64,000 bases of DNA from Bacteroidaceae bacterium (GTDB lineage: Bacteria > Bacteroidota > Bacteroidia > Bacteroidales > Bacteroidaceae): positions 2,474 through 66,473 of the forward strand of contig JAKSJE010000002.1 in the NCBI GenBank assembly GCA_024398405.1, read 5' to 3'. Shown in pieces: positions 1 through 27,163 of the stretch; the first letter of the stretch is position 1; each line of letters starts with the position of its first letter. The notes under the pieces are model-generated. The model had not been told where the DNA came from. It made no database searches and worked only from the letters and a program-made list of their open reading frames with translations. Both the position numbers and the translations under genes were made by a program.

Positions 1-408
1 CGATGAACTTGCCAGTGACTCTGAGGCGTGTGTAGTGCTGAGGTGTGTTGTTGATGATGGTGACGAGGTAGCCGAAAGCGCCCCGAGCTTCGGACAACGA
101 GGCATCAACGGTGACGAATATCTTACCTTTCTTGCCAGGTTTGACATTCTTGCGCCTGTAGGTAGCAGTGGTGCAGCCGCAGCTGGTCTCAGCTGATATT
201 ATGCGCAGTGGTGCGTCACCCTTGTTGATGAAGGTGAATGTGACTTTCCGTTTCTCTTTTCGCGACACGCTGAGCTCGCCGATGCCCATGACGGTCTCAG
301 CGAACTCCATCTCAGGTGCCTTTGGTTCTTCGAGACGGGGGTCGGTCTGTTGGGCACTCAGTGTGAGGCTGACAACCAGCGTGAGCGTGGTAAGCAAGAG
401 TCGGATCA
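1..408 (-). CDS. DUF1573 domain-containing secreted protein (partial; 3' end lies beyond the window)
   Basis: Absent from the ORF track because there is no stop in the window. My minus-strand translation from the ATG at 406-408 gives the signal peptide MIRLLLTTLTLVVSLTLSAQ. It continues with ..FTFINKGDAPLRIISAETSCGCTTATY..KPGKKGKIFV, the CGC-containing motif typical of DUF1573. The start lies 22 nt downstream of the preceding gene's stop. Confidence 0.7.
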
Positions 409-429
409 TAGCCAGGAATCATGAGGTTA

Positions 430-2961
430 TCAGTCATGCGAGCCGTTCCTGCCTGCCTGAGCCGCTCCGACCATATCGGATGACTTCTTGAAATTCGCCT
501 TGCTGTCAGGATGGAACTCCAGAATGAGGTATTCGCTCGCCAGTCCATCGACATCCAAAGCACGAGTAATCACGCCGGGCACATTGTGGAACCATACTGA
601 TTTGTCTTTTGTCTTGTAATATGGTTGGACTCCCAACTTTATATGCTCTTCATAGTCGGTGAAGTAGTAGTAATGGAAATAGTATGTCCCATCGCCGTTC
701 AATCCAGGGTTAGCGGGGAAATACGGTTGTGGTATGTCAGAATTCTCCCATGAATATCTGGTCTTTTCCTTGTCGAGGAAGTACCTGAATGACTGATGGT
801 GGAAGTACAGTCCCATCTCGCTCCACTGCTCACTGATCAGTGATGTGTTCTTCATCACCACCTTCGTGATGAAATGGTATTTGTATTTGTTGCCGCCCTT
901 GTCCCTCTCGATCTCGACCAGATAGGTCCCGGCGTTATACATGGAGGCGTACGCCAAGTCGCTCACCGTCATTTTCTTGTCATAGAAGAGCACAGGTTCC
1001 CCACCGTCCTTCCGATAGCCCGGTATCATGTAGTAGTATTTCCCCAGTTCCTCGGTGGTGACATAGGAGAAAATGTAGTTTTTGCCTTGTTCCAGTTTGC
1101 CGGCGTAAGATTTCAGGTTCATCATCACAAAGGATTTGTCATCCTCGCCGATGGTCGATTTCCTGCTGTTGAAGTAATACAACGCCATGACCGGCTCATA
1201 GCGTTTCGGGTTCGCCCTCGCTTCAAGTCCCACGTTGGAGAAAGAGAACGACCCGCTGAAGTTCAGTGACATATTCCCGTGTCCGTCATCCTTGACAATA
1301 TTGTATGAGGCATCGTTGCCCTTCCCTAATGACGGAGTGACCAACAACGTGCCTTCGCCTAAGTTGATACTCTGTCCGATTGGGAAAGGGGGGAGAGTAT
1401 AGCCCATCAATGTCAGTTGCGCTTCTGGGTCGAAATGGATGCTGTATTCGATTTTTGTGTTGGACGAGAACTCAAGACCGTATTCGCCTTTTCCTATGCT
1501 GGTGTCGAAGTTGAGTGTGAGATCGGCCATCAGTGAGCCACCGACTCCAAGACCTAGCAGGCGGGTGCTTTTGCCACCGCTGGGGAGCCCCACCGATGCG
1601 CCGAGATAGCCAGACACCCCACCGCTTATCTTCAGGAACCCCTCCGCCTCGATAGGGTCCCATGTGACATAGGCCCTGCCCGACGTGGCCGGTCCTTCTT
1701 TTCTCGTCACTTTGTTACCCTTGGTGATGACGGTGGTGGTAGATGTGGGTTTATAGATATTGACACCCACCTTGCCCATGAACCCGATGTCGCAACTCAG
1801 CTGAGGTGTAACCTCCAGATACAGGAACAAGGCCGGCATTGAAGGGAAGGGGATATTGATGACGAAACTCCTGTCGTTTCTCCATGCCTCCTTGTCAACC
1901 GAGGATTTCTCGAGCAATGCCTCGATTTTCTTGTGATACTTGGAGTATATGTATTCGAGGTCGAAAGGAGCGCCACCTTCCGAGACGGAATATGATATCT
2001 TGTAGTGCGACTTGTCAACGATGGTCTCCTTGCGCACTGTGTTTTTAGGATTTTTCTTGTCGAGTTGTATATCGACGGTGACATTCTGGTCGATAATCTC
2101 GTTGACTGAGAGCTCGATTTCCAGACCGGCATCAGATAGTTCGGAGAGCGCCTTTGCGAGAGCTGAGCCCGGCAAGAAATATTTAGCCAGTTCGCCCGAC
2201 GATGACGAATTGAACTTGAACAGTTCCGCGGTTTTCGAGGTGTTGTGACCTTTCCGGTTATCGATATCCTCAGTCTCGCCATCGGTCCACACCTCCATTC
2301 CGTCGTCATTCGATTCATAGCAGCATCCACGGGACTTGGCGAGTGCTATGTCGGCAGTCTTTTCCTCTTCCTTCCACATGCGCATCGCCTTGACGCGGGC
2401 AGGAGTGCTGACGCCGTCGAGGATGTCGTAATCGGTAATGAGCGGACATTCAGGGTCAAGTCCCATGGCCACGCACTCCTCGCTATCGGGTATCACGATG
2501 TCATGGGTGAGAATATAGTCGATGTTGAGGCTTACGTCGAGTTCGTCGAACACCTGTTCCATTCCGGCGCGTCGTGTCACCATCCTGTACATACCCGCCT
2601 CATGAGTGAGCGACTCCACGTAGTTGCATAGGCCGGTCGGCAGTATGTGTGAACAAGGTGCTGAGACATAATGCCCCGGACGGATGAGCAAATCCGTCGG
2701 TATATTATCAGAGAAACAGAGTATGGAATCGGCATCGACACTGATGAGATAGTCCATGGCCGCCTGTTTCAGCACCACGGTGCTGTCAGAATACTGGAAA
2801 GTGATGTCGCCGTACTCAGTCTCCTGAGTGTACGGTTCATCAAAACCGACCTCCTCAAGTTCCTCAGCAGACTTGTCTTCGGAAAACAAATCCTCTTCCA
2901 TGGAGAGTGAACAGCCGACGAGGAGCAAGAGCGAAAGCGAGAGTATGTGTGATTTTTGCAT
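430..2961 (-). CDS. large lipoprotein of unknown function (operon member)
   Basis: Corresponds to ORF 430..3090. I prefer the internal ATG at 2961, which gives the lipobox-type signal MQKSHILSLSLLLLVGCS. Contains Gly/Ser-rich beta-type segments (GGVSGYLGASVGLPSGGKS, LGLGVGGSL). No catalytic motif recognised. Confidence 0.8.
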   Translation of the reverse strand: MQKSHILSLSLLLLVGCSLSMEEDLFSEDKSAEELEEVGFDEPYTQETEYGDITFQYSDSTVVLKQAAMDYLISVDADSILCFSDNIPTDLLIRPGHYVSAPCSHILPTGLCNYVESLTHEAGMYRMVTRRAGMEQVFDELDVSLNIDYILTHDIVIPDSEECVAMGLDPECPLITDYDILDGVSTPARVKAMRMWKEEEKTADIALAKSRGCCYESNDDGMEVWTDGETEDIDNRKGHNTSKTAELFKFNSSSSGELAKYFLPGSALAKALSELSDAGLEIELSVNEIIDQNVTVDIQLDKKNPKNTVRKETIVDKSHYKISYSVSEGGAPFDLEYIYSKYHKKIEALLEKSSVDKEAWRNDRSFVINIPFPSMPALFLYLEVTPQLSCDIGFMGKVGVNIYKPTSTTTVITKGNKVTRKEGPATSGRAYVTWDPIEAEGFLKISGGVSGYLGASVGLPSGGKSTRLLGLGVGGSLMADLTLNFDTSIGKGEYGLEFSSNTKIEYSIHFDPEAQLTLMGYTLPPFPIGQSINLGEGTLLVTPSLGKGNDASYNIVKDDGHGNMSLNFSGSFSFSNVGLEARANPKRYEPVMALYYFNSRKSTIGEDDKSFVMMNLKSYAGKLEQGKNYIFSYVTTEELGKYYYMIPGYRKDGGEPVLFYDKKMTVSDLAYASMYNAGTYLVEIERDKGGNKYKYHFITKVVMKNTSLISEQWSEMGLYFHHQSFRYFLDKEKTRYSWENSDIPQPYFPANPGLNGDGTYYFHYYYFTDYEEHIKLGVQPYYKTKDKSVWFHNVPGVITRALDVDGLASEYLILEFHPDSKANFKKSSDMVGAAQAGRNGSHD

Positions 2962-2974
2962 ATTCGAATCGGGA

Positions 2975-3703
2975 TTATGGTGTTTGCAGTGATTCGTTTG
3001 GTGGTAATGGAATGGAGAAAGATAGTTGGACTGGGGCAGACGGAGTGCCGTCGTTGAGACCGGTGAACAATGTGGAGTAACCGAAGTCATAGACTTGCAG
3101 CGTCACAGGATTGTAGGCACGGAGATTGATATAGTCATTCGCCTCCTCGGGATCGCCGATTGTGAATGGGCTCCAGACCCTGAAACAGTAGATGGTCCTG
3201 TCCTCGTCCATCGGCCTGGCCAGTCCGCGAGGCACGCCGTCCGCATCGAAGGCCCCGAAAATCCAGTTTTTCTGAGGTACTTTCCCATCTATCAGTATAT
3301 GTGCATAGATGACCATGTCAGACGGATACTCATATACACTCACTTCCCAGCGTGGCATGACACATACGGTGCAGGTGTCGCTACGGCTGTTGATAAGAGT
3401 GGTGGCCATCACCTTGCTCCACCCTTCCTTGTTGGCGAGGATGGTATCGTTCATGCATTTGACGATGCTGTCCTTCTCAGCCTCCCAGAAGACTGATTTG
3501 GAGCCTACGCTGTCAGGGTAGATGTAAGGAGCAAGGAAGAATGTGTCCTGCACCATGACATAGACAGTGTCATAGGTGAACGTAAGACTCCTCACCTGAT
3601 TGGTCTCGGTGTCGAAGTCCATCTCTATCAGTCCGCAAGAAGTCAGTCCGAGACAAATAAGGACCAATGCCGAATTGCGTATTCTCATGAATGCCCTAAT
3701 CAT
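2975..3703 (-). CDS. small lipoprotein of unknown function (operon member)
   Basis: 242-aa ORF with signal MRIRNSALVLICLGLTSCG (Cys lipobox). An alternative start at 3688 is possible. It overlaps the upstream gene by 8 nt and lies 14 nt from the downstream gene. Confidence 0.75.
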   Translation of the reverse strand: MIRAFMRIRNSALVLICLGLTSCGLIEMDFDTETNQVRSLTFTYDTVYVMVQDTFFLAPYIYPDSVGSKSVFWEAEKDSIVKCMNDTILANKEGWSKVMATTLINSRSDTCTVCVMPRWEVSVYEYPSDMVIYAHILIDGKVPQKNWIFGAFDADGVPRGLARPMDEDRTIYCFRVWSPFTIGDPEEANDYINLRAYNPVTLQVYDFGYSTLFTGLNDGTPSAPVQLSFSIPLPPNESLQTP

Positions 3704-5945
3704 AAGTCTGTGGATTTGTGTTGGAGGCCGGGACAGTTACGGTTACCGAATTGGAGTCGTGAGACTCACGACCGTCTTTGAAACGAAGTTTGACATATAC
3801 GGTCTCGAACGCACCTGGAGCAGAGCGTGGCAGCCGGATTTCCCTCCTCGTAATCGGCTGTGAGATGAGGAACATGCTTTTCCTCATGTCCTGGTTCTGA
3901 TGATATATGCAGATGTAGCAGTCATCGGTTCCTTCACCCCCCTCCATAGGATGATTCCGGTCTTTGATGTCGATAAGGAAAACCATCTCCTCTTTTTCCA
4001 TGTCGTAATGTCCTGACAACACAATCGGGATATCGACGAAACGGGATCCTTCGTAGGCTATGCTCACGACAAGACTCAGACCGCTTCCGACCGACCAGCA
4101 TGAGAAACTCTCCATTGCATACTGGTAATCCTTATGGCGGTTGTAGGCCGGTGTGTCGGTCACCCTGAGAATGTCGTCAGCAGCTTTGATGGAGTCGGCG
4201 TCGTAGATGCCCAGAGTATCCCATCTCTCCTCCCCGTCTGTGCGACGCAACAGGACATGGTGATCCATAATCTGTTCGTTGCTGCAAGACCATTGCATGT
4301 GTATTCCTGATGAATCGACCTCGGAACGTAGCAGATGAGGCGGCATGGGCTTCAGCCGTGTGGGGCGCACCACCTGCAGCCAAGGAGTCAGTTCGCCGAT
4401 ATTGGTTGAATAGTCTATCGCGCGTACCTTATAATATATATATTTCTGGTTCACATCCAGCGCCACGGTATCGACGAACATGCACTCCTTATGCTTTCCC
4501 TTGGTGGCTTGTATGAAAGTGTGAGTGGTGTCGTTCGCTACAAGCACATCGTAGTATTCGATATCGTCATCCACGGAGTCAGGCTCCCATGACAGAGTGA
4601 TGGTTCCATCCTCCAGACTTGCGTCAGCCTTGAAGTTCCTCATCATCGAAGGCGCCTTGACGTCCTTGATGCTGACCATCCGAGGTATGGAATACGACAC
4701 ATTATGAGCGGTGTCGTAGGCAGCCACGACCACCATGCCTGTCGAGAGTCCCGTCATGTCGCAGGTGAAGAGCGAATCGGTAGGAGAGAGCAAGTCAGGC
4801 GAGAGTTCCTTCCATTCCCGTTTTGTGTTTCTTTCGTTGTAGTACATAGGCATGAATCCGACAAAGTCATCCTCCAAAGAGTCTTTCCTGAAATGGAACG
4901 TAGCCATCACCTGCTTTGACAGGTCATATGGGTCCTGACGGTCAATCTCCACGAAGATGACCTCAGGAGCCTTCGGTGCCTCGATGTCCGGCATGACCAC
5001 CGTATGTATAGGCGAGGCCTCTGTCAGTTCTCCGTATGGGTCATGTCCGAAGATGCGGTATTCGTATGTCCCGACATCCCCCACATAGTCATAGTACTGG
5101 CAGTCCATCTTGCCCTCCACCCGATTCACAGGTGTCATGTTGAGATAGGGAATGTCTGTCAGGCGTTTCCATTCAGTCTCGCCTTTCATCCGTCGGTCGA
5201 TCTCATAGCTGGAGTACCCACGGTCTTCCCACCACAGCACCATGCGGTAAGGCTCGGTTATGGAATCACCAATTTCAATGTCGAACTTAGGAGGCACATA
5301 CTTTTCGTTCGTAAGCCTCTTGCTTGCAGAACCAATCTGAAGGGTTCCGCTTTCGTCGAAATACGACGGCATCACCGCATATTCGTACTTACGTCCTTCC
5401 TCCACGTCCTTATCCACCCAACGCATTGCCACATGGTCAGCCAAGTCCTTCCTCCACTCCGCCACAAGCATGGTGAACATAAGATGCTGTTTTTGGTTCT
5501 CGCTCAGTTCAAGCCATGACCCCATAGAGCCCTGTGCCGACCTCGTCTGGTCGGGTCGCATCTCCCTGCCACCGTAGAGCAGTCCGATTGCCATGTTGGC
5601 AAGTGAGTCCTTGGCGGAATATGAGCGTATGAACTGCTCTTTCGTCCAAGGTCGCAGTTCCGTGACAAGCGTGTCTATCCCTCCGGTGTCGTCAAATCTG
5701 ATGATATCAACACCAACTTGGTATAATGCCTGTTGGACAGCCCAGTCCTCGGCAGCCCAACGAAGGACGATACTGTCGCCATAACACCTTGCGTCCATGA
5801 TGATAGCCGCCATCGGAGCCTTCTCCCACCTCTGAGGAACAGAGTCCTCTGCCCCAATCTCCTCCTGAGCACGGACGTGGGCGGTCAGGTATCCCACTGG
5901 CAGGACCAGTACTGTCACCAGCAATGTCATTATAAGTCTGTTCAT
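3696..5945 (-). CDS. secreted multi-FN3-like repeat protein, function unknown
   Basis: 749-aa ORF with signal peptide MNRLIMTLLVTVLVLPVGYLTAHVRAQ. Recurrent FN3-style strand motifs are present (YEYAVMP, YEYRIFGHDPYGELTEAS, YIYYKVRAIDYSTNIGELTPW). These are separated by AP..P linkers. Confidence 0.75.
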   Translation of the reverse strand: MNRLIMTLLVTVLVLPVGYLTAHVRAQEEIGAEDSVPQRWEKAPMAAIIMDARCYGDSIVLRWAAEDWAVQQALYQVGVDIIRFDDTGGIDTLVTELRPWTKEQFIRSYSAKDSLANMAIGLLYGGREMRPDQTRSAQGSMGSWLELSENQKQHLMFTMLVAEWRKDLADHVAMRWVDKDVEEGRKYEYAVMPSYFDESGTLQIGSASKRLTNEKYVPPKFDIEIGDSITEPYRMVLWWEDRGYSSYEIDRRMKGETEWKRLTDIPYLNMTPVNRVEGKMDCQYYDYVGDVGTYEYRIFGHDPYGELTEASPIHTVVMPDIEAPKAPEVIFVEIDRQDPYDLSKQVMATFHFRKDSLEDDFVGFMPMYYNERNTKREWKELSPDLLSPTDSLFTCDMTGLSTGMVVVAAYDTAHNVSYSIPRMVSIKDVKAPSMMRNFKADASLEDGTITLSWEPDSVDDDIEYYDVLVANDTTHTFIQATKGKHKECMFVDTVALDVNQKYIYYKVRAIDYSTNIGELTPWLQVVRPTRLKPMPPHLLRSEVDSSGIHMQWSCSNEQIMDHHVLLRRTDGEERWDTLGIYDADSIKAADDILRVTDTPAYNRHKDYQYAMESFSCWSVGSGLSLVVSIAYEGSRFVDIPIVLSGHYDMEKEEMVFLIDIKDRNHPMEGGEGTDDCYICIYHQNQDMRKSMFLISQPITRREIRLPRSAPGAFETVYVKLRFKDGRESHDSNSVTVTVPASNTNPQTYD

Positions 5946-5969
5946 ATCCTATTCAAATCCGTTCATGTC

Positions 5970-14900: not shown

Positions 14901-16784
14901 ACTCTTTCCCATGGCCAACATCTGGTAGTAGTCGGCTATTCCGTCCACTTTGTCGGCGATGCTTTTCTTAGTCCCCGTGGTTATGTCTTCCGCATAAGGC
15001 ACTCCCGCATCGGCAAGAAGGTCATTCAGACCTATGTCAGAGAACAGGCTGTTGACGGCTGCGAGTTTGTCACCCGCCTTCGGATCCTCCATTCCCTTCG
15101 CTATGCCATCATACACTACGTCGTCGGTGTTAATCTTCAGTTTCTCGAACCTCACATGCACATTGATGACGCCGAGACCCATTTTCTCAAGTGTCCACCC
15201 CACCTTGCCTGTACCTGTGAATCCATCCTTACCAGTACCGCTGCTGATACTGTCAATCAGCATCTGGTATTTTCCGATAGCGACAGTCTTGCCCTTGAAG
15301 TCCTCCTTCTTCTTGGTGGTCGGGATGGTGTTCTCGACCGCTTTGTCATTGCTGCATCTGAAATAGTCTGCTCCGATGAACTCTCGCATCGAGAAGTCAC
15401 GCACGTTGAGCGAGTCATTTTTGAATATGATGGAATCTACACTTGTCTTGCAGACCGGCTGTACTCTGAGAACCAGATGGTCGTTTGCCTTGACTTTTGA
15501 GGCGATGGAGTCCCATGCTATTGAGTGGGCAGTGGAGTCTTCCGGCAATGCTTTGCTGTATATGAGGTTTTTCTTGTCAAGTATGTCTTTTGCGTTTGGT
15601 GTATCCTTCCCATTATACAGTTCGACGGTATAGCCAATATCAAGTGTCTTAGGGTCTCCGTAACCTTCCTCAAGCCATGCGGGTTCCCATTCGACATCGA
15701 TGTCGAGCATCTGATAGACTTTGCGTGCTGTCCCATTGTCGAAATAAGGTGCTTTGATGTCAGGATTGAGGAATGAATACTGTATCTTGTCCTTTTCCCC
15801 CAAATCACCCTCGCCCATGGAGATATTGAAATCAAATCCCGGAACAGACTCCTTCACACGGAAACAGCAAAGACTACTCTTACCGTTGTTCGCTATCTGA
15901 ACGTAGTTCATCTTGCTGCTGTTCAGAGCTTTTGCGGTGATCTGGGCTACGTATGTCTTGCTCGCGCTGAATTCCTTGATTACGTTGGCTGGAATGGTGA
16001 CAGATGGCATGAGCAGCCCGTCCTTGAAATAGACTGTATTCCCCTCGCTGATAGCCACGTCAGGACTCTGGAAGTCCAGTTTCTCGGCTATGCGAATGGC
16101 ATAGGTGTACTGTTGCGCTGGGTTGCATGTAAGGCTTGGCGAAGACCATGTGAACAAAGGCGCTTTGGGGTCAATCTCCATTGGTTCGCTTTCGTTGCCG
16201 AACATCACCAACGGCTGAATCCACGTAGGAGCCTGGGCATTGTAGCAGACCGTGAACATGCACTGACCGCTTGTCGGTGAACTCAGAAGGTAAGGTGAAT
16301 CCTGATTGTTTCCAGTCCATCGGAATGCAGCGAACTTTATCATATACTCGCCCTCAGGCAACAATCCGAATGATCCGTTGGCATAGCCTTCAATCAGACC
16401 ATCTGGAATCTTCATGGCTGATGATGGTATGTGGTTGAAAAGGTTCTTCATGTCGTTCAGGGTCAAGGAATAGACCCCGTTCGACGGTACTACGAAGGGA
16501 CGTGCAGGTTGGTATCTGTCAGGAGTGGCTGCCAGAAGCCCGTCATCAGGCATCGTATGTGTCATGCAGAGCGACAGATACACTCGCTGCTCCTCGGATG
16601 TGGTGTTGACCAACTGAACGTTGAAGAACTCGCTCGGATCAGAGACGTAGAGCAGGAGTTGAGGTGGAAGTATGTTGCTCTTCGCTGATACGTTCACCAT
16701 GATATCCTGTGCCTTGGCGTTCTGCACCGAGAACGTCAGAACTGCTACTGCCAACAGTATTCTATGTATTTTTTTCATCTGCAT
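5970..16784 (-). CDS. giant (3,604 aa) secreted protein of unknown function
   Basis: Single uninterrupted 10.8-kb ORF with signal peptide MQMKKIHRILLAVAVLTFSVQNAKAQ. The N-terminal ~2,480 aa has beta-rich composition. A K/E/P-rich linker sits near residue 1,460. The C-terminal ~1,100 aa appears helix-rich (D/E/K/R/Y/N). I see no T9SS CTD, lipobox or TM anchor. Confidence 0.9.
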   Translation of the reverse strand: MQMKKIHRILLAVAVLTFSVQNAKAQDIMVNVSAKSNILPPQLLLYVSDPSEFFNVQLVNTTSEEQRVYLSLCMTHTMPDDGLLAATPDRYQPARPFVVPSNGVYSLTLNDMKNLFNHIPSSAMKIPDGLIEGYANGSFGLLPEGEYMIKFAAFRWTGNNQDSPYLLSSPTSGQCMFTVCYNAQAPTWIQPLVMFGNESEPMEIDPKAPLFTWSSPSLTCNPAQQYTYAIRIAEKLDFQSPDVAISEGNTVYFKDGLLMPSVTIPANVIKEFSASKTYVAQITAKALNSSKMNYVQIANNGKSSLCCFRVKESVPGFDFNISMGEGDLGEKDKIQYSFLNPDIKAPYFDNGTARKVYQMLDIDVEWEPAWLEEGYGDPKTLDIGYTVELYNGKDTPNAKDILDKKNLIYSKALPEDSTAHSIAWDSIASKVKANDHLVLRVQPVCKTSVDSIIFKNDSLNVRDFSMREFIGADYFRCSNDKAVENTIPTTKKKEDFKGKTVAIGKYQMLIDSISSGTGKDGFTGTGKVGWTLEKMGLGVINVHVRFEKLKINTDDVVYDGIAKGMEDPKAGDKLAAVNSLFSDIGLNDLLADAGVPYAEDITTGTKKSIADKVDGIADYYQMLAMGKSIWDLIKSGHTDIYMPLCMPKGVESLVGELPVDIQITKMEFASTYATMDLLGEFTMPESENLASDILVFGAPRLCISPDHILPESGQLALLDKFTVVEPSSGYECTFKAPQDLLEPTDGTYVSWKNYEFEVMGIDVDMKIPKLKKYDMDTKEVTDSLPTLTIRTQIASWDEFMVDEVSMEPFEIASLPGFTFVVDKMCYDHSRVMNASPMSGFRWPKNYKKEESIGKENLGRYGDNGWEGFYIKTMSVLLPEGLTSTADDSKDRLAITAKDFLIDKSGVTLNAKFDNVFDAYAGGFGVSVKEVSLNVVQNNFDNCYLKGDLGVPLLKDKDNGKARLDYECQVRRQIDEKEKETDNFAFIFNTRQLSGDFNLDLYAARLVLDANQTYFLLESEPKDPKQKKSETNKMVTRCELMLGGRMEIGRKSEAEDYLEEKLGTKLALPDIHFIGMRIANCKTWKSKYVDFQANTDSLRKVQEDKAIASLYTSGKEFTNGAENKADTTFYFHTGSWSLASASKKLGPFEFSLVNYDFTSVTKDESLVIGLGLCGRVNVVSGIELGAEAGVTIFGSIKNLSLSDLSNIECSLDSARLDSIALDASFSGITFDGHLYMSNDAKSEKGKGFEATLDVTLPGNLMSLHASGAYYDIDSDEDDYTWGYLNLKIGTKIELGPLVITKLGGGFYFNCSPVGKNKDGNFVLADIRNKKGLIGMSVSMEMASPDEKAATGELELAVVYNKTQKCLSQFIFTGNVKAVGGLINADMSLVYECTPMEKYLQLNITADAKIDYDASDYIGDFASDLGSTKEQLDEISGGKFNIITGCETGLDSKIGAKAEEPKKDEAPKNEPKENDAKSAAKTEDQKKMAATCSATVTLDVKVTWRTGGVDYPSPRWHFYLGEPAEDKRCSVVLIDFGKEGDLVNCKLGANCYLCFGNELPDNGQLPPIPKKISDFLDGAEHGDGYISDNLSQATEARNAALNSFKTDFGVLLGAQAYGNLGINLGLIYGKIEAIAGFDASLTHYGKALCTNFGRSPGYNGWYARGQLYAYMGMELGAKFDLGFVNYDIPLVKAGVGGVLKMGGPRPTYFQGKVRAKLNLLGGLFQIDKSYTFDVGEQCVLFQGNALDDFMLFSDCTLGDTIKENGWASDEKSIDGGAKMLNRNVRTPQYVDTEAPLEEHFRVIDNNELERIANNAGIMPGSKEHQKLYMQACRTFRFTTDNQYAVLYEYNDPEDDTWPKKVKRDGVVGYGESRKTVIPFDANSTGTRHFLNLPALRSALHDGKFYRLVLTGKAQELHDGVYKDPYTCDTITNDCDYRPWNRTVCYYFRTENSNTLNDKIPLSDYVAVAYPSNQNMLTNENIKEDSESGLSEHMIAYLGDVQRPTIALNDDIRDMAFKEGSLYWRLLNPMGKQIDIARNAFVEYKDGGDIVGLNMEPEHPLNARPNQKYIIELDYFTKETKVNESGSNVSQLVDTCLLRLFVETTGADKDWRTNTGISKRDVTYDEPFVACRLVDYEMEQMSPLPTEVALMGTGKYTYDPFWYVGYFSNYVFPAGWNVTESGFFNLEVTTSESLIFQHGGRKYEGLYDDKMANPQKAASEYGDIRGMLFRTVGKPYENWNQPSDKWMTNGSADYVYSGPTTYQYRRTSTFNSKDISHNVWDIISTIRSVYQDVEAFNREIIEAAQWVSSRYDSWSSDHWAKDYIRNLVAAHRGEYITEDGIGTSGKDYKSYASDGKVIGKDGSYAYNNATISVPYYMLPTIFSIATFEKASDAFKGFNNDSPRAQNAKTIWNHIDKTPRFFDAKGALKHINKLTAVCYRINAYDFVNGHYGVTDRLLNGMAVFQADINDPFGDKTSSDVTASGGCNTGNTSDGETKDTEPSGIDKTTADGESFNYDRMEMLAKRVTDYSGALTNRLKEVKDPSWNEYVKNLKELKSTSAEALSYAKKTLGYYCEHRNDKTSAKTKTNAEQAVRRAYELFDKTRSSSDDLKWGLYYKYGDLVNGKQEYENHRGGFHDLLCDAWDELRMMSDQKSKEYKRYETLYNDGHEAYMNLDSWCDSIDNSCDSGEAYQARQMTELAEYYLSLDENVGYCDELADEARDMARKAAVMQKNVQDYHTNYVNKLQTVTGVIEELEKMIDKNELPEDEQVINDYLDELDRKLIEARDISGVFDGYDFYYDKLDSIGTKIMDIRQSVLELLIIDDSPQYKTVNNAWDATNKAMQLIHDDSLEMRQLWTVKSFSKIPERIENCKYQLESFLDQYQNRDWDTANAMVARIDSINELRNDVWNGFLNGPDGMKGVDDMYALYESIVRDRMNYHSGDMDALRNCADNCALFTNRITEMRSAYEYAVKEFRSISGTDCLERILQAGFRKTSPLYVTAKDKNNQAASLNNREIMTELDNLESIRSGKGGAWFVGNDVRFFALADTKFRGKEDLARWWMPTDEILAETENPERFYADAGMKTLEDMSAMYYAARKESKTEINTIAGEVTAGMSVPTDRLKSYEEEILKYIREYRDGAVRDWSVNDTWYGPKYFLDHVVDAANEYCGIYEELSDRLRTVNRLAEMVADSLDKAEAIRNRVPDVANPYAGILLRRYNAVREYYTGTPFNQIEGIATKAREISHTWNDVLLPIRTEAIEALNYIAEHGQPFISPDDSIARARFLEEYHALGRFRETIENLFVEKDGKKVYHGRDTYVERVKSNHKTLTETWMPTLRDNNSQLTALSEPDPAASDIDRDIQIFSHSKTFMDTFTVMRDSTRRVVGIFPIMVDELGGAREAYANLQGKLDDALLTEYAAMIKQIEDAATVVSEYMPEINNMYEEANSMPYMAINQSMKNSKSRIKNYVMNYYNENVSEVNALFYDCQSKYNTMQSKWDAAETVYEECANTVAQGKRPKASLLQTGIDAYNYISSQYPVFGNAHSRMFLIVNGMTSVKQSAIAAGIDESEFVGLGEGRVNDFRSRLADFRNDIKPKRDAAVKKGRELEDWKE

Positions 16785-16797
16785 GGGTCATTCCTGG

Positions 16798-18582
16798 TCA
16801 AAGTCGCGTATCCACGTTGTCGTGCAGGGTCTCCATCGCCTCCTGCCTCATTAACTCCTCCGATTTACTCTTCTCTTCCATGCGGTGTTTCCTGCTCTTG
16901 ATTGCCACGATGGAGAAGGTGTATGTATAGTTGAGCGAGCAGGAAATGTCAGTCACGTCGAGGCTGCTACGCTTTTTCGTCATATTCACATCTCCGTATT
17001 TGTTGAAACTGGCTGCGGCACTGAACTGGTGGACTTTCCCCAGCGTGTAGCCAGCGCTGACGCTACCACCGATGGAGAGGTTCTTCGACTGTCTCTTCAC
17101 TTCGTTGTATGCGAGGTTGACCGATGCGCTTATGTTCAGGTTCTTGTCTTCGAGGAACGAACGTCCAGTAGTGAATGTGAGAACGTCGCTACTGTAGCGG
17201 GTGTTATAGCCGTCGGACTGCTGATGACTGTACGATAGGTTGAGATTGACCTCCCAAGGCTTGACATCCATGTTGTAGCTTGCGCCGAGAGCCAGCGTGC
17301 TCACATCGCTCTTGCCGTCAGCATACTTGTTGAGGTCCTTATTCTCCACGTAATTGCCTGACACACCAAACGTGTGGCCGAGTGTGTTGCCGTCGAGGGA
17401 ATAATATGGTGAGATGGAGAAGCTGTTCATCTGTCTGTGGATTCTCGATGAGTCGGTCACTATTGCCGTCCCGTCACCCTGATCCTGTGTGTAGCCATTG
17501 TAGCCTATGGTGACTCCCATGTTGCTTGCCAACGGCACCGATGTGTTCACCGCATAGATATAGCCCTTGGTCGTGTAGAGCTGCTTGTTCGTCAGGTTGT
17601 CCTCCTGACCGTTGAAGGTTCCCGAGAGAGCGATCTTCCGGAACAGAGTGGTGCTTGCGGATATTCCGAGACTGTGGTAGTTGTTGTTGATGCTGTAGAG
17701 TCCGAGCGATGTGTAGTCTGGCTGGATGAACCTGTATGACAGGCTTGTGTTGAAGTTCCTCAGGCTCAGGTTGACGTTCATGTCACCGGCAAAGCGTGCG
17801 AGTGTGCTGTACCTTATATCGAATATCTTGTCGAAGTCGTTCCTTACGTCCACCTTCTCTGCCGTGGCGTCTGTGTTGAAGATGCTCCCTGCTGCATTGG
17901 CGGTGAGACTTAACCATTTCAGTGGGGAGATACAGCCTTTCACCCCCACCACCATGTTCTCCTGAGCCTTCAGCTTGTCACGCCATTCGTCGTTGATGGA
18001 GTTCAAGCAATCATAGGCGCGCAGGAAATAGATGTCAACGTAGTTTCTTCCCGAGCCATAGCCAGCCTTAAATCCCCAGCCCATACGTTTGTACTGAGGA
18101 GAACGAGCCAGTGGGTCAGTAGGGTCATCATTGACGGCTTTCCTGATCCGCCCGTAGAAAGCCGACGCACGCCAGCGTTTACCGTCGTTGTATTCCAGGC
18201 CGGCACCGTTGAATGACATATTCATCACATAGTTGCTGAATGCCATGTTCGACTCGCCGAAGTGGCCTGTCCACTGTTTATACGACGGATTCAGGTTAAA
18301 GGAGAGATGTGGGTAGTTGAAGTCGGTGTTATTGTTCGCATAGTACAAGGAGAACGGCATGGTGAAACCATACACGCTGATGTTAAGGTTGGCGTATATC
18401 GTGTTGCTCAGGGGTGACGCATAGTCTGTCCCTGAGGTATAGTGAAACGTGTTCTGTGTCCCCACAGCGCCAGAGATTATCAGTGGATCACTTTCGGCTA
18501 TCTGTGAGATGTTCTGGGCACGCAGAACGCAAGGTGCCATCCATACGGCGCTCAGCATCAAGGCTGTTGCGAGTTTCCTCAT
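16798..18582 (-). CDS. putative outer-membrane beta-barrel protein
   Basis: 594-aa ORF with signal peptide MRKLATALMLSAVWMAPCVLRAQ. It shows amphipathic alternating Y/N/S/G-rich strands throughout (e.g. SASVNLAYNEVKRQSKNLSIGGSVSAGYTLG). The stop lies 14 nt upstream of the giant gene's start. Confidence 0.65.
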   Translation of the reverse strand: MRKLATALMLSAVWMAPCVLRAQNISQIAESDPLIISGAVGTQNTFHYTSGTDYASPLSNTIYANLNISVYGFTMPFSLYYANNNTDFNYPHLSFNLNPSYKQWTGHFGESNMAFSNYVMNMSFNGAGLEYNDGKRWRASAFYGRIRKAVNDDPTDPLARSPQYKRMGWGFKAGYGSGRNYVDIYFLRAYDCLNSINDEWRDKLKAQENMVVGVKGCISPLKWLSLTANAAGSIFNTDATAEKVDVRNDFDKIFDIRYSTLARFAGDMNVNLSLRNFNTSLSYRFIQPDYTSLGLYSINNNYHSLGISASTTLFRKIALSGTFNGQEDNLTNKQLYTTKGYIYAVNTSVPLASNMGVTIGYNGYTQDQGDGTAIVTDSSRIHRQMNSFSISPYYSLDGNTLGHTFGVSGNYVENKDLNKYADGKSDVSTLALGASYNMDVKPWEVNLNLSYSHQQSDGYNTRYSSDVLTFTTGRSFLEDKNLNISASVNLAYNEVKRQSKNLSIGGSVSAGYTLGKVHQFSAAASFNKYGDVNMTKKRSSLDVTDISCSLNYTYTFSIVAIKSRKHRMEEKSKSEELMRQEAMETLHDNVDTRL

Positions 18583-18641
18583 GTCTGTCCTTCGTGAGAA
18601 TCCGCCGCAGGACTCACGTTCCTACGGCGGATTGCTTGTGG

Positions 18642-21308
18642 TTATTTGCTCAGATACTTCTTGCCGTTCTTGATGACGATGCCGTTGTATGAACTGTTTA
18701 CAATTTGCCCACTTGTGTTGTAAGTCCTCATGCCCGGCTCCTCGCTCTTGAGTCCAGGTTGAGTCTGAATGCCGGTCACGTAAGGTGCACTGAGCATGAC
18801 TGGCTCTCTGAGACTGCCTTTGCGGGTGGTGTAGTTGAGGACCTCATTCATTTCATAGCTCTCACCGCTTTCATAGTCATGGAGCACGAACGTCAGTCGT
18901 TCCCCTGCCTTGCCCGATGCGTTGATGAATGCGATATCGCCGTCAACGAACTCGCCCCGTCCGCGGCATTCATCACCTACGAAGACTCCTATAGAGTAGT
19001 GACTTGCGTTCTGCAGACCTTCCACCTTGGCAATCAAAGCCATGTTGTCGGCAAAGGCATGAGGATTATAGGAGAACACCTCCTTGCGGGCATTTGTCTG
19101 CCTTGACTTTACGCCATTGCCTGGGTCTGCTGGCATGAGGTCTTTGTTAAACGCCCATGTCACCAATTCCTGATTGGTGTAATACACACATCCCTGACCT
19201 TCCCTCAAGGCAAATTCCAGACCTGCGACCCATGTCCCATCTGATGCTTTGTAGGTGGCGAAGTTGTCTTTTGTGATAATCATGTCCCCATCCTCCGGTG
19301 TTACTCCGTTCAGGAAGTCGGCAAGACGGTCAGCCGTGATGTCGAACTCGTATGGGTTGTTGATCCAGTTATAGCCTTTTCTGGCAACTGCATATGCTTC
19401 GTTCAGGTCGAACACGCTCACGTCACCGAGCGTTATGGCCGACGGCTGACTCGTATGCACCTTATACATGCCGTCGGTTGGCTTCAGTATCGTAAGGTCG
19501 CCGAAGAGTCCAAGACCGCCCTTGTCGTTGAATGTCAGTTGTTGCTGTGAGCGTATCTCTATCAGGTCGTCGGTTTTCATGGCCCGTTCGAGGGCGATGC
19601 CCTCCCGTTCACCGGCATTGACGGAAACCCAGTTCCATCCCTGTCTGAGTTCTTGCTGCACCTTGATGTTGACGAACGGCGAGGCGATTGCTCCGTCCAC
19701 CGATGCCATAGGCAGCACATCACCGTCATACACAAGGTCGAACGGAATGCCCTTACCTGCGAACCTCGGTGTGATCATCATGGAGTAGTCCTTGGATGAG
19801 GCATCCGCAGGCGCCTTCACCTCTGACAGTTCCGCATAAGGCTTTCCTGTGTATCTCTCCGGGAACTTCACGCTGACGTCGCCGATATCGAACGGCTCGT
19901 TTGCCGGATTATCAACCGTGATACTTGCAAGCACCGACTCTGAGACGCTGCCGGTCTTCAGGAAGTCGGTCGTCACCTGTCTCCATGTGATTTTCAGCGC
20001 ACTTGTAATGTCGAGGTCTATCTCGACCGATGCGTCACCCGGCTCCGAGCCTGGCATCACCGTGACTCCGTCCGTCAGTGTAACAGTGGCTTTGGCAGTA
20101 CCCTTCTTCACTGCCAGACCCTCTGGGCTGACCGCTTCCTCCGGATCGTAGGTGTAGCTGACCTCATTGGCCGCCCATGCACCGGGGTCTTTATGCTCAG
20201 GCCATGCGAACGACAGTTTCCCCTTTATGAGTTCCTGCGGCTTCTCACCCACCTTCAAGCTGATGCTCTTGGTCTGTGTGCTGATTGACAGCGGGCGGAC
20301 ATACACTTTCACGTTCACTTTCGGGTATTTGTCTGAGGTGAATGACTGGTCGGGGTTCACAGGCGCTATCATCACCGTATATTCCCCACCAGTGGTCGGT
20401 ACTGTCATGTCTGTCGTCACGCCATTTACGGCGCACACGAGCTTGAAATCCTTGTTGTCGGCATCGGCAGGAAGTATGGTGAGATGCGAACTGAGGTAGT
20501 CTTTGAGGTTGTCGTATGCGAAGAATTTGTCAATGGACTCTATGTCGCATGTGATGGATGTGACTCCGACTGTCACGACAATGACCTGGATCGTCGCTGT
20601 TCCGCTGAGACTCTTCTCCGATTCCGTGGCTCCTGGAAGGTAGTAGCTGGCCTTGACATCCAGTGTATAGGCATCGCCATCTTTGCCGGTCTTGATTCTA
20701 ACCTCCGAGCCAGTTGTCTCGATGTTGTCAGAAGAAGTGGCCGCTTGCTGGCTCACCTCATAGGCAAAACGCCCAGCCACACTCGACTCACCCTTCGTAC
20801 CATTGTACTGGAACGTGACGTAATCGGCTATATCGACCGTGTACGGGAATGCGGACGGTTTCTGTTCCACTTTGATTGGATTGTCCTTGACCACGATGCC
20901 TTTCACCTCGTCAAGATACAAGTCGATAGGGATTACCTCGTGGTTGCCGTCGCCAATGAACTTGATGGTCTTCGCGAAATCGTACTCGATTCCGTTGTAG
21001 AAGGCCTTGAAACTGACTGTCTGGTTCAGCTCAGTCTCGGGATTTCCGGCCACACGCATGGTGATGACGTTCTGGGTATTGGCCTCCTTGCTCGTCTTCA
21101 TGGCTCTACACTCTCCGTTGATGAATGCTCCGAGCTCCAACGTCTGTTGCGAGCCGTTACCGATGACTCTGCCGCCCACATACACCCTGATGAACACTGC
21201 TGTCTCTGCGCTGTAGTCCTGATTCCCTTTCGGAGTCCAGTGATTCGTCTGCGCCGCTATTGCCACAAACGGAAGCAACAGGGCGAGTGCTGATAGAAAT
21301 TTTCTCAT
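18642..21308 (-). CDS. T9SS-sorted cell-surface protein with Ig-like repeats (first gene of operon)
   Basis: 888-aa ORF with signal peptide MRKFLSALALLLPFVAIAAQ and a Thr/Val-rich Ig-like middle region. The C-terminus ..YNTSGQIVNSSYNGIVIKNGKKYLSK resembles a type-A Por secretion tail. The N-terminal module (ELGAFINGECRA..) recurs near the C-terminus (IGVFVGDECRGRGEF..). Confidence 0.8.
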   Translation of the reverse strand: MRKFLSALALLLPFVAIAAQTNHWTPKGNQDYSAETAVFIRVYVGGRVIGNGSQQTLELGAFINGECRAMKTSKEANTQNVITMRVAGNPETELNQTVSFKAFYNGIEYDFAKTIKFIGDGNHEVIPIDLYLDEVKGIVVKDNPIKVEQKPSAFPYTVDIADYVTFQYNGTKGESSVAGRFAYEVSQQAATSSDNIETTGSEVRIKTGKDGDAYTLDVKASYYLPGATESEKSLSGTATIQVIVVTVGVTSITCDIESIDKFFAYDNLKDYLSSHLTILPADADNKDFKLVCAVNGVTTDMTVPTTGGEYTVMIAPVNPDQSFTSDKYPKVNVKVYVRPLSISTQTKSISLKVGEKPQELIKGKLSFAWPEHKDPGAWAANEVSYTYDPEEAVSPEGLAVKKGTAKATVTLTDGVTVMPGSEPGDASVEIDLDITSALKITWRQVTTDFLKTGSVSESVLASITVDNPANEPFDIGDVSVKFPERYTGKPYAELSEVKAPADASSKDYSMMITPRFAGKGIPFDLVYDGDVLPMASVDGAIASPFVNIKVQQELRQGWNWVSVNAGEREGIALERAMKTDDLIEIRSQQQLTFNDKGGLGLFGDLTILKPTDGMYKVHTSQPSAITLGDVSVFDLNEAYAVARKGYNWINNPYEFDITADRLADFLNGVTPEDGDMIITKDNFATYKASDGTWVAGLEFALREGQGCVYYTNQELVTWAFNKDLMPADPGNGVKSRQTNARKEVFSYNPHAFADNMALIAKVEGLQNASHYSIGVFVGDECRGRGEFVDGDIAFINASGKAGERLTFVLHDYESGESYEMNEVLNYTTRKGSLREPVMLSAPYVTGIQTQPGLKSEEPGMRTYNTSGQIVNSSYNGIVIKNGKKYLSK

Positions 21309-21336
21309 GTTAATATATGTTTACTATTCAATGACG

Positions 21337-21344
21337 CAAAGGTA
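21337..21344 (-). promoter_or_regulatory. Bacteroidota sigma-A -7 box (TACCTTTG) for the giant-protein operon
   Basis: The minus strand reads TACCTTTG, matching TAnnTTTG. It lies 29-36 nt upstream of the ATG at 21308. Confidence 0.5.
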
Positions 21345-21383
21345 ACGAGTAAGCCCATCATGCAATTGAACTTACTAATCAAA

Positions 21384-21435
21384 AAATTGTACTTTCGACG
21401 CATTTTTTCATGCGGAAATTGTACTTTCGACGCAT
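21384..21435. promoter_or_regulatory. perfect 20-bp direct repeat (AAATTGTACTTTCGACGCAT x2, 32-bp phasing); candidate regulator binding sites
   Basis: Copies at 21384-21403 and 21416-21435 are identical. They lie in the divergent intergenic region between the operon and the AraC-type regulator, roughly -55 to -105 from the predicted operon start site. Confidence 0.55.
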
Positions 21436-21544
21436 GATGCAATAATACCACGTTTGTTATCAACACTTTGCTCAGTCTATTTTGATTTTGCGCCAAAAGA
21501 GGATTTTTTATGGGAAAAACAATTCGGATAAGGTATTTTTTTTG

Positions 21545-21552
21545 TACTTTTG
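21545..21552 (+). promoter_or_regulatory. -7 box (TACTTTTG) for the regulator gene
   Basis: Matches TAnnTTTG, 35 nt upstream of the ATG at 21587. Confidence 0.45.
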
Positions 21553-21586
21553 CAACTCCAAACTATTAAAAATCTCAAATTCAAGG

Positions 21587-26800: not shown

Positions 26801-27063
26801 TAGGTGAGGTACTCACCGTCTTTGTTGCGGATCTGGCAACTGAGAGCGCTGCCCGAGAAGCACCACAACTGGGCGGCGTCATCGCTGTTGAGCGACACCG
26901 TCTGCACGTTGGAGCCCGTGCCGGTCCGCGCGACAGTGAGCTTGCTGTTTGAGAACTGGATGACATAAGGGGTAACGCCATCGAACTTAGGTGAGACCTG
27001 AGCGTTGATGAAAGCGATGCAAGTCTGCAATGAGAGGATTGCGATCAATAGACTACGTTTCAT
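23863..27063 (-). CDS. GH95 alpha-L-fucosidase/alpha-L-galactosidase, full length with T9SS C-terminal domain (copy 1)
   Basis: 1,066-aa ORF with signal MKRSLLIAILSLQTCIAFINAQ and a ~160-aa N-terminal lectin-like module. The GH95 N-terminal signature is present (TLWYDRPA..WMEYSLPIGNGQLGASLFGG..EIQFNEKTLWTGGP). The C-terminal ~65 aa (..ITVAGNPTQVNVYSTTGVCLL..GVVMVSVTSGQTTETFKT) resembles a T9SS CTD. Confidence 0.85.
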   Translation of the reverse strand: MKRSLLIAILSLQTCIAFINAQVSPKFDGVTPYVIQFSNSKLTVARTGTGSNVQTVSLNSDDAAQLWCFSGSALSCQIRNKDGEYLTYNGSRLQTSVSEDASGWKLEQSTNSSYKTSWEIKWLGASDSKSYVNQFGGTGVGKELGLWNKGDVNNPVVIIDPSDIEYPDFKVAGASSFSPEHQLTLWYDRPATLTGVNNIWMEYSLPIGNGQLGASLFGGVHKDEIQFNEKTLWTGGPNDLGGYGQYKNFGSVIVEDLSDVFGYTESKSAKDYVRYLDLENATAGVSYTSPDGGTRYSRLYFSSYPAQMIVARYKADGKDKLHLKVSYQMGEEIDARGLSYSVSKTGDAYATFLGSLSTVEYNTRMKVVPVGEGSTVEKADDGLVVDNASEVVIYLTGRTNFDGSVASRSSGTAAELRTAVLDLVKSTAAKGFDEVYSEHVADFRSLMGRVSLQLAGAEAPTSLPTDALVDYYNDKSKNVKGTEPFVLFLEQLYFSYGRYLEISSSRGVDVPSNLQGIWNNLSRAPWNSDIHTNINVQMNYWPSEVTNLSEMHMPFLNYIITNAASANWQKVAKSYAKVSKGWTVFTESNIYGGMSTWGSNYFVANAWYCSHLFNHYRFTRDKDYLRRAFPAMWSAAQFWMQRMIRDRGYDSKVSNKDYRGTAYKSSPDGTFVAPDEYSPEQNDHATEDGTAHAQQLIYDLLTNVRKSVDILGQSSAGLTDEELAELDDYIQDTDQGLHTEQYTASSLNGAWTNPRNGVKKGDLLLREWKYSPYDVSGDASHRHLSHLMALYPLSTLSPSSPYFVPAVNSLKLRGDEATGWSMGWKTNLWARALDGDHAHIIIHNALKHSTSYGTNQYAGGIYYNLYDSHSPFQIDGNFGVCSGIAEMLLQSHTDTLRLLPAVPSVWPYGEIKGLKAVGNFTVDQAWENGRLTVATITAVLTLPCPVTYKGIADRRVVNSKGEEVACKYVNEDCIVIDAVAGESYTIDMSQQTTSVRRPVAEAFSIRNDNGLITVAGNPTQVNVYSTTGVCLLSTDRPSFRLDPAWGVVMVSVTSGQTTETFKTRSR

Positions 27064-27162: not shown

Positions 27163-27163
27163 C

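Follow-up and report, generated by a model that had tools for sequence, protein, structure and literature searches.

A conserved Bacteroidales gene cluster encoding a giant exported protein, a predicted outer-membrane barrel and a fibronectin type III-like protein

Inverse autotransporters (intimin/invasin, type Ve) carry a beta-rich anchor region, a 12-strand barrel, followed by Ig-like domains and a variable C-terminal tip. In the FimD/PapC ushers, sandwich domains flank a large beta region and Ig-fold proteins are encoded alongside, the subunits of chaperone-usher systems being pilins. Within the Bacteroidota, SprA/Sov belong to a size class of about 2,400 amino acids (aa), and arrays of BspA-type leucine-rich repeats (LRR) and DUF285 units are surface adhesin modules in Tannerella BspA. 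The rumen and many human gut communities are dominated by Prevotella and its Bacteroidales relatives, yet little is known of how these bacteria build their surface apart from Sus systems, type V pili and cargo of the type IX secretion system (T9SS). Here we analysed a window of 64,000 nucleotides (nt) from a Bacteroidaceae bacterium (GenBank assembly GCA_024398405.1, contig JAKSJE010000002.1, positions 2,474 to 66,473 of the forward strand), and we describe a cluster of seven genes, g1 to g7, in which an exported protein of 3,604 aa (g3, hereafter the giant) is encoded next to a predicted outer-membrane barrel (g2) and a fibronectin type III (FN3)-like protein (g4).

The results showed that this Bacteroidales gene cluster is real and widely conserved. 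Homologue and profile matches indicate that its invariant core is the trio of g2 (a predicted barrel of about 580 aa), g3 (the giant) and g4 (an FN3-like protein of about 750 aa). We tentatively read the cluster as a Bacteroidota-specific surface-display complex that would be anchored in the outer membrane.

We compared the cluster with the closest described systems. The giant has a similar succession of parts to the inverse autotransporters; however, it lacks IAT_beta, Big_1 and LysM, and where those proteins have a 12-strand barrel it has about 40 strands spread over about 1,250 residues, and in addition a long N-terminal FN3 array. The cluster also differs in having an obligatory separate barrel of 594 aa and an FN3 protein. 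The likeness to FimD/PapC lies in the flanking sandwich domains and the Ig-fold proteins encoded nearby, whereas the TM-scores were 0.12-0.19, the giant exceeds the ushers four- to fivefold in size, and the subunit genes of this cluster encode lipoproteins or T9SS substrates. With SprA/Sov-PorV and SprB/SprF the cluster shares the phylum, a giant of about 2,400 aa or more encoded next to a dedicated barrel, and a T9SS substrate in the operon, but no SprA, PorV, PorP/SprF or SprB-repeat model matched it, and the giant lacks a T9SS C-terminal domain (CTD). Arrays of LRR_5 and DUF285 as in Tannerella BspA occur in paralogous giants, which NCBI names 'BspA family'; these repeats are a C-terminal add-on in some giants and are absent from the giant of this window, and BspA, itself a T9SS substrate, is not known to have any of the conserved core. 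Four relatives of the giant matched the first 150-200 model positions of DUF6603 (PF20248, an uncharacterised family) at residues ~1130-1305 or equivalent with 23-26 bits, all below the 27-bit cut-off, and the giant of this window did not match it. By analogy, the nearest functional counterparts would be inverse autotransporters and usher-like platforms, and the nearest in domain content BspA-type surface proteins. The cluster thus appears akin to giant surface proteins with dedicated outer-membrane partners, though its parts seem unrelated to any described system; judged from sequence matches, only g1 (a T9SS substrate) and g7 (DUF1573) are assignable to a known family. In full-text literature searches, we found no description of the cluster, of DUF6603 or of giant Prevotella envelope proteins.

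Gene order, conservation and distribution

Seven open reading frames (ORFs), all on the minus strand, occupied positions 1-21308 of the window (Table 1), and the gaps from g1 to g7 were 59, 13, 24, -8, 13 and 20 nt. Inspection of the N-termini revealed signal-peptidase-I-type signal peptides on g1, g2, g3, g4 and g7 and lipoboxes on g5 (LTSC/G) and g6 (LVGC/S), and these export signals were retained in orthologues. In the Bacteroidaceae metagenome-assembled genome (MAG) record GCA_024500545.1, the cluster products (tags MJY59_00420 to MJY59_00430) are annotated as hypothetical. Pfam and NCBIfam scans of all products recognised only g7 (DUF1573) above curated cut-offs, PHROGs gave a Big_2-type match to g5 only, and PADLOC gave no match to the cluster products.

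We then compared the window proteins by tblastn with a set of 83 related loci. The giant was found in all 83 loci, followed by g2 (79), g1 (77), g4 (72), g5 (68), g6 (48) and g7 (28). Wherever the contig allowed, the order g1-g2-g3-g4-g5-g6(-g7) and the strand were identical, with median intergenic gaps of 10-102 nt and a cluster size of up to 30 kb per locus. This arrangement is far beyond chance. The highest identity to relatives was that of g2 (50-64%), and the lowest were those of g1 (25-38%) and g6 (23-40%). With matches in about one third of the loci, g7 is an accessory member.

The giant had 172 close relatives of 2,400-4,600 aa, all named hypothetical or 'BspA family'. A scan with an alignment of the giant as query, covering one genome per GTDB species, yielded at least 590 confirmed matches among these species-representative genomes. 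The best 79 loci came almost entirely from Prevotella, Prevotellaceae, 'Bacteroidaceae', Muribaculaceae or Bacteroidales MAGs of rumen and gut, with a single isolate, Prevotella sp. 885 (L019, NZ_NOVE01000010.1). Three MAGs carried two loci each, with giants differing in length (L006/L081, L010/L047 and L015/L061). At E <= 1e-3, a profile of residues 1125-1760 of the giant matched the representatives of 1,701 clusters built at 50% identity; among the best 150 listed of these, nearly all were 2,000-5,000 aa long, and the few named representatives came from Bacteroidota.

Four distant relatives (L084 to L087) were searched with hidden Markov models (HMMs) of the other cluster members. The g2 and g4 HMMs matched genes flanking the giant: g2 in all four loci at 6e-85 to 7e-139, and g4 as complete copies in L084-L086 at 2e-93 to 6e-120 and as two contig-end fragments in L087 (9e-44 and 7e-27). 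The HMMs of g1, g5 and g6 had no match in these four loci. Therefore, g2, g3 and g4 make up the invariant unit, to which individual lineages add further genes of their own.

These data bear on the initial annotation of this DNA, which had described seven co-directional, tightly spaced, operon-like genes whose products all carry a signal peptide or lipobox. Both statements were confirmed, with gaps of -8 to +59 nt, and its remark that the products belong to no recognisable family was upheld by the Pfam and NCBIfam scans, which recognise g7 alone. It had also staked its proposal beforehand on synteny beyond this genome, and the conserved order in the 83 related loci provides this. The treatment of the seven genes as one equal unit gave way to an invariant trio with the lineage-specific accessories g1, g5, g6 and g7.

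Table 1. Coordinates of the cluster genes, the parts of the giant and the divergent region in the window
Feature	Position	Strand	Remarks
g1	18642-21308	-	888 aa; N-terminal sandwich (residues 23-119), Big_2-type Ig repeats, conserved central domain, second sandwich (~746-793), predicted T9SS type-A C-terminal sorting domain
g2	16798-18582	-	594 aa
g3 (giant)	5970-16784	-	3,604 aa
g3, residues 27 to ~470	15375-16706	-	several small beta-sandwich (FN3/Ig-like) domains; AlphaFold, pLDDT mostly 75-90
g3, residues ~500-1735	11580-15287	-	predicted long amphipathic antiparallel beta-strands (10-20 aa), about 40 in total; DSSP, both models
g3, residues ~1750-2470	9375-11537	-	predicted small beta and alpha/beta domains, Ig-like sandwiches included; model residues 631-1200 of m43e77b1c0fad
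g3, residues 2471-3604	5973-9374	-	fast-evolving C-terminal module, probably helical; composition
g4	3696-5945	-	749 aa
g5	2975-3703	-	242 aa; lipoprotein with Big_2-type Ig domain (residues ~33-114) and sandwich domain (residues 116-242)
g6	430-2961	-	843 aa; ORF reaches 3090, lipobox Met at 2961
g7	1-409	-	start at 409; truncated by the left window edge
Candidate promoter/operator, divergent intergenic region	21309-21586		20-nt repeats and TAnnTTTG-type box; inferred function
Divergent TPR-AraC regulator (candidate)	21482-23311	+	probable start Met at 21587

Domain organisation of the giant and its companions

BLAST and a conservation profile divided the giant into a conserved core, residues 1 to ~2470, and a variable tail, and the profile placed the most conserved block at residues 26-1760. 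Two AlphaFold models of parts of the giant were obtained from 30-sequence alignments. The model of residues 27-1146 (m2d08f4f3a97f) had a mean predicted local distance difference test score (pLDDT) of 74 and a predicted TM-score (pTM) of 0.44, and that of residues 1120-2319 (m43e77b1c0fad) had a mean pLDDT of 68 and a pTM of 0.40. Foldseek matched the first model best to tandem FN3 arrays, namely CNTN6 FN1-3 (1e-7), titin FnIII (1.1e-7) and cytokine receptors. For the second model, the best PDB matches were the outer-membrane barrels FimD (4.6e-4), PapC (6.8e-4) and BcsC (8.2e-4), and LptD, the Occ and OmpF porins and SlpA were further barrel matches. Residues ~1750-2470 gave Ig-like (NFAT RHR) matches.

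Between residues 1142 and 1733 alone, DSSP of the model assigned about 25 long strands. The strand faces in the long-strand region alternate between hydrophobic and polar, and two elements break up the region, a helical insert (residues ~568-633) and a charged low-complexity linker (residues 1413-1485). The models suggest that residues ~500-1735 form either a barrel-like structure or a large membrane-facing sheet; the evidence stops short of a closed transmembrane barrel.

The conserved core closes with the motif YRxNAYDF, and the family members of 2,400 aa stop there. Beyond this point, the tail of the giant is about 30% identical to its closest relative, though that relative is 50% identical overall. 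The tail showed no internal repeats by BLAST and is low in Gly (5.2%) and Pro (2.3%), with Ala, Glu and Arg raised compared with the core. In a sequence-profile search of the giant against the PDB, coiled-coil-type noise appeared in the tail only, and the central module had no match. The C-terminal module is replaced in some family members and absent from those of 2,400 aa, and the C-termini of the family share no common motif. In P0088, a paralogue of 4,534 aa, the core ends near residue 2615 and is followed by eleven DUF285 units and BspA-type LRR_5 repeats, with the mapped repeat units between residues ~2900 and 3741.

Two other family members had an unusual ending. Residues 4909-4971 of P0336 matched the C-terminal domain of ribosomal protein L7/L12 (PF00542, 3.7e-11), which is odd for an exported protein, and the C-terminus of P0016 is of the same type. 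A viral fold library gave only weak tail-fibre-like matches, which we attribute to beta-rich repeats.

The g2 protein has a signal peptide followed by an all-beta-type sequence. A count on the conservation pattern gave 21 conserved segments with alternating hydrophobic and polar residues at positions 64-558, and a motif near the C-terminus, NYxYTF, was kept in 25/25 aligned orthologues. No other member of the cluster is as well conserved; the orthologue alignment of g2 shows few indels, and the protein has no sequence relative in Pfam or the PDB. We also considered homology of g2 or g6 to the beta module of the giant, but hhalign gave a probability below 1% for both. The g4 protein is an exported FN3-like multidomain protein and always lies directly after the giant. 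Its fn3 Pfam score was 21.2 bits against a cut-off of 25, and its orthologue profile matched FN3 domains of PTPR-delta, -F and -S in the PDB at 3e-4 to 6e-4.

The homologue search with g1 returned only 3 proteins, because g1 evolves fast, and g1 of this window alone had no Pfam match. We therefore turned to its orthologues. A profile of 23 orthologues matched a Big_2-type Ig domain (PDB 7quz, 1.8e-7) and the gingipain CTD structures 5hfs and 7pq4 (0.014), and Por_Secre_tail was found in 4/23 orthologues (best 2.6e-5). The tail consensus of 74 orthologues, '...vYDLsGRRV....GvYIVr..nGK..tkKVxk', is the usual type-A motif pattern. These matches identify g1 as a predicted T9SS substrate. The g1-tail HMM also matched the extreme C-termini of two other ORFs in the window, 48790-51774 (-) and 60206-62785 (+), with E-values of 1.4e-4 and 2.3e-3, which suggests that they are further T9SS substrates of the same genome. 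In the distant relative L084, the place of g1 upstream of the barrel is taken by an unrelated T9SS substrate of 2,073 aa (MAM, fn3 and Por_Secre_tail).

The g5 profile matched 7quz (1.5e-9) and the Big_2 domain of lambda gpV (2.5e-5) in the PDB, and a major-tail-protein Big_2 in PHROGs (1.4e-7). Its sandwich domain is common to g1: hhalign against the g1 N-terminus gave a probability of 98.9% and an E-value of 3.1e-17, and the sandwich recurs near the g1 C-terminus. The g6 protein is a poorly conserved lipoprotein with a Gly-rich central beta region; it is 17-25% identical to its orthologues in the alignment and had no PDB or Pfam match. After the lipidated Cys, g5 has the conserved motif CGLIDMEFD, and 60/66 orthologues have at least two acidic residues behind the Cys. 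In g6, the motif CTLSMEE[WYF] (here CTLSMEEW) occurred in 40/41 orthologues, and at least two acidic residues in 40/41. Two otherwise unrelated proteins share this hydrophobic-then-acidic motif, which may serve in specific docking or sorting. The g7 protein matched DUF1573 (PF07610) at 3.4e-22 and 78.7 bits, above the cut-off of 26.1, and had a HYDIN/VesB-like Ig match at 1.1e-12. In L072, a relative with 43% identity, a full-length g7 orthologue of 127 aa follows g6 (DUF1573, 68.1 bits).

The described systems of envelope assembly were also searched for. SprB-type gliding adhesin operons were rejected: Por_Secre_tail, CHU_C and SprB had no match in g3 or its relatives, so that the giant has neither a T9SS CTD nor SprB repeats, and PorP_SprF had no match in g2. 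SprA (Pfam SprA_N and NCBIfam SprA) gave no match at E <= 0.1 and was absent from the top 50 fold matches of residues 1120-2319. With regard to a single-chain giant barrel as in SprA/Sov, about 40 long amphipathic strands are predicted in the giant of this window. Two-partner secretion was rejected for lack of any Haemagg_act, ShlB or POTRA_2 match. For chaperone-usher systems, Pfam found no Usher or PapD-type chaperone, and the fold resemblance to FimD/PapC was weak. A SusC/SusD locus was excluded by the absence of Plug, TonB_dep_Rec and SusD matches in the seven products, and type V (Fim/Mfa) pili by the absence of FimA/Mfa matches in Pfam and NCBIfam for g5, g6 or the others.

The initial annotation had stated that the usual Bacteroidota templates do not fit, and this agrees with the absence of TamB/AsmA, SprB, Sus, Fim/Mfa, usher and two-partner-secretion domains. 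Its view of g1 as an Ig-repeat protein with a T9SS CTD was borne out through the orthologue matches to gingipain CTD, Por_Secre_tail and Big_2. Other descriptions needed adjustment. The giant indeed belongs to no curated family, but its parts can be read in order: first an array of FN3/Ig domains, then the barrel-like beta region of long strands, then Ig-like domains and finally a swappable C-terminus. The alternating segments fit an outer-membrane beta-barrel for g2, a call that stands on the sequence pattern; the FN3 matches of the 'multi-FN3' g4 exist but lie below threshold (21.2 bits against 25; PDB about 3e-4); and the DUF1573 assignment of g7 holds (3.4e-22), but g7 is accessory (28/83 loci) and not core. 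The suggestion of a 'self-contained' system had to be dropped: since g1 carries a T9SS sorting domain, at least one component would depend on the T9SS of the cell.

Proposed surface display and competing readings

The initial annotation compared the cluster with a surface machine or a secretion/assembly module, a reasonable but unproven proposal. Our own tentative preference is a surface-display complex, for which we infer the membrane embedding, the topology, the association of the products and an adhesive or display function. What we observed directly is the gene order with its conservation, the export signals, the domain content, the variable C-terminus of the giant and the T9SS tail of g1. 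Export of all products from the cytoplasm would be by Sec. Anchoring would fall to the g2 barrel together with the long-strand region of the giant, about 1,250 residues in or on the outer membrane, and the FN3/Ig-like domains of the giant, the FN3-like g4 and the Ig domains of g5 would provide a rigid scaffold. The C-terminal module of the giant would be the working end, in contact with the host, with food particles or with other cells; in this giant it would be a probably helical module of about 1,130 residues, and elsewhere a BspA/DUF285 LRR array or absent. In this lineage, the T9SS-secreted g1 and the lipoproteins g5 and g6 would join the complex, and the sandwich common to g1 and g5 could dock both on the same partner.

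We prefer this reading because several lines of evidence converge on it. The gene order and tight spacing are kept in the 83 loci and the trio persists in distant relatives, and all products carry export signals. The g2 pattern stands beside a giant with an FN3/Ig array, barrel-like fold matches and Ig-like domains. The C-termini of the giants are swapped, paralogues carry adhesin-type LRR modules, and single genomes contain paralogous loci with giants of different length. A link to the T9SS is given by the g1 CTD and by the different T9SS substrate at the same position in L084, and the acidic post-Cys motifs of g5 and g6 resemble the lipoprotein export signal. Finally, the presumed outer parts evolve faster: the more rapid change of g1, g6 and the giant tail would fit surface exposure.

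Several observations weigh against surface display. The barrel matches of the giant were weak (E 5e-4 to 1e-2, TM 0.1-0.33, root-mean-square deviation 13-34 A), the pTM of its models was just 0.40-0.44, and open lipid-binding sheets (ApoB100, vitellogenin) were also among the fold matches, with low probability. The prediction of g2 as a large outer-membrane beta-barrel of about 20 strands or more comes from its sequence pattern only, and that of a probably helical giant tail from composition only. This giant has no recognisable binding domain in its C-terminal module and no T9SS CTD, known autotransporter or two-partner-secretion signature, and no known route accounts for a C-terminal module of 1,100-2,100 residues crossing the outer membrane. 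Experimentally defined Bacteroidota lipoprotein export signals after the lipidated Cys are C-x-K-(D/E)2, SDDDD or SDDFE (PMC5080379), from which the g5 and g6 motifs differ in spacing and in hydrophobic residues at +2 to +4. In addition, no experimental or proteomic record was found for the cluster.

Because the C-terminal part has no known route across the outer membrane, a second explanation stays alive, in which the trio serves as a platform for translocation or assembly. The long-strand region of the giant, with or without g2, would then form a very large barrel that exports or assembles proteins, on a principle like that of ushers, LptD/E or the SprA-PorV translocon; candidate cargo would be g4, the C-terminal part of the giant itself or the adjacent T9SS substrate after release. 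The top fold matches are FimD/PapC ushers, BcsC and LptD, and the layout of the giant, a sandwich, a big beta region with an insert and another sandwich, mirrors the usher NTD-barrel(plug)-CTD. The minimal giant of about 2,400 aa falls in the SprA/Sov size class, and a T9SS substrate gene lies directly upstream of the barrel in two sublineages whose substrates are unrelated. The conservation of g2 over its full length (50-64%, few indels) also fits loops that are engaged by partners rather than freely exposed. However, no sequence relation to Usher, SprA, LptD, Omp85 or PorV was found, the TM-scores fall well short of what a common barrel fold should give, and no energy source or periplasmic chaperone signature is present. 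The gene upstream in L085 and L086 is not a recognisable T9SS substrate, and C-termini that vary, being LRR or helical, point to a product on display and not to a channel. On balance, we consider such a platform unlikely.

A broader proposal is that the trio (a barrel of about 580 aa, a giant of 2,000-5,000 aa with about 40 long strands of membrane type and an FN3 protein of about 750 aa) constitutes an undescribed outer-membrane machine of the Bacteroidota, a new assembly or export route for very large surface structures that would cooperate with the T9SS, substrates of which have their genes directly upstream, but be mechanistically distinct from it. We regard this as conceivable but doubtful; if it held, the trio would be an addition to the secretion and assembly systems of diderms.

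A role as an envelope-spanning handler of lipid or glycolipid, or as a structural tether, in the manner of TamB/AsmA, LptD or Deinococcus SlpA, appears quite improbable. In this scheme, lipid would bind to the amphipathic sheets, the partner in the outer membrane would be g2, and the helical C-terminus would act as a periplasmic stalk. The long amphipathic strands are compatible with this, as are LptD, SlpA, ApoB100 and vitellogenin among the fold matches. A further point in its favour comes from L072, where an LpxL-type lipid A acyltransferase and a UDP-galactopyranose mutase (Glf) follow the cluster (26869-29170) and two sulfatase-family genes precede it. However, these LpxL-like, Glf and sulfatase-family neighbours are beside the cluster in no other locus, and the LpxL-like and Glf genes are not in the window either. 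No AsmA, TamB or DUF490 domain was matched by Pfam or NCBIfam in the giant or 15 relatives. A continuous beta-taco (jellyroll groove) fold was likewise not found in the moderate-confidence models: residues 27-1146 led to FN3/Ig arrays, with no TamB/AsmA or LptD-N-type jellyroll among the top 50 matches, and residues 1120-2319 to outer-membrane barrels. No Omp85 or POTRA match was found in g2 and 24 orthologues, and mature g2 opens directly with conserved strand-like sequence. By domain, fold and Omp85 partner, a TamB/AsmA lipid transport module was therefore rejected. Moreover, the N-terminus of the giant resembles a cleavable signal peptide (AKA/QD) and not a signal anchor, and the LRR/BspA modules at paralogue C-termini fit a surface role better.

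A role of the giant as a polymorphic toxin or in contact-dependent competition, with a conserved N-terminal part that delivers a variable C-terminal effector, would agree with the conserved core, the variable C-terminus and the several loci possible in one genome, but it is very improbable: no toxin, PAAR, RHS or TPS domain was found, the variable parts, made up of LRR or probably helical sequence, span 1,100-2,100 residues and are not short enzymatic tips, the gene after the giant is always the conserved g4 and not a small immunity-type gene, and members of 2,400 aa lack the C-terminal module altogether.

The cluster is common and large, sometimes has two loci per genome, and encodes conserved proteins without a described family. 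If the surface-display reading is correct and swappable LRR or helical modules are displayed, they would be candidate determinants of attachment to host, particles and other cells and of strain-level variation. These questions are testable, since one or more carriers are in culture, among them Prevotella sp. 885.

Candidate regulatory region and neighbouring genes

Upstream of g1, the divergent intergenic region contains an exact 20-nt direct repeat, AAATTGTACTTTCGACGCAT, at 21384-21403 and 21416-21435 with a spacing of 32 nt. A box of the TAnnTTTG type, TACCTTTG, precedes the ATG of g1 by about 30 nt. At the position that corresponds to the direct repeat, L072 also carries a repeat, with the same TACAATTT core. 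A scan for sigma-70 promoters and terminators, with models not suited to Bacteroidota promoters, showed no difference from shuffled sequence.

The divergent gene encodes a protein with a signal-like N-terminus, tetratricopeptide repeats (TPR), a hydrophobic segment and a C-terminal AraC-type helix-turn-helix (HTH), with scores of 5.7e-17 for HTH_18, 3.5e-12 for HTH_AraC and 2.3e-14 for TPR_12. An AraC-type HTH match was found in the flank of 45/83 loci; among the distant relatives, L086 has two AraC genes upstream, and L084 a TPR histidine kinase and a response regulator. This circumstantial evidence makes the TPR-AraC gene a candidate regulator of the cluster, and in the surface-display reading it would probably control expression through the 20-nt direct repeats.

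Two tandem GH95 genes on the minus strand, at 23863-27063 and 27164-30214, are 99.8% identical over 3,146 nt, so that the pair reflects either duplication in the very recent past or an artefact of assembly. Of the two copies, the one at 23863-27063 retains the longer C-terminal tail. Beyond the pair, at 30211-32774 (-), a GT2 glycosyltransferase and a polysaccharide-biosynthesis/flippase-type gene point to a surface-polysaccharide locus nearby.

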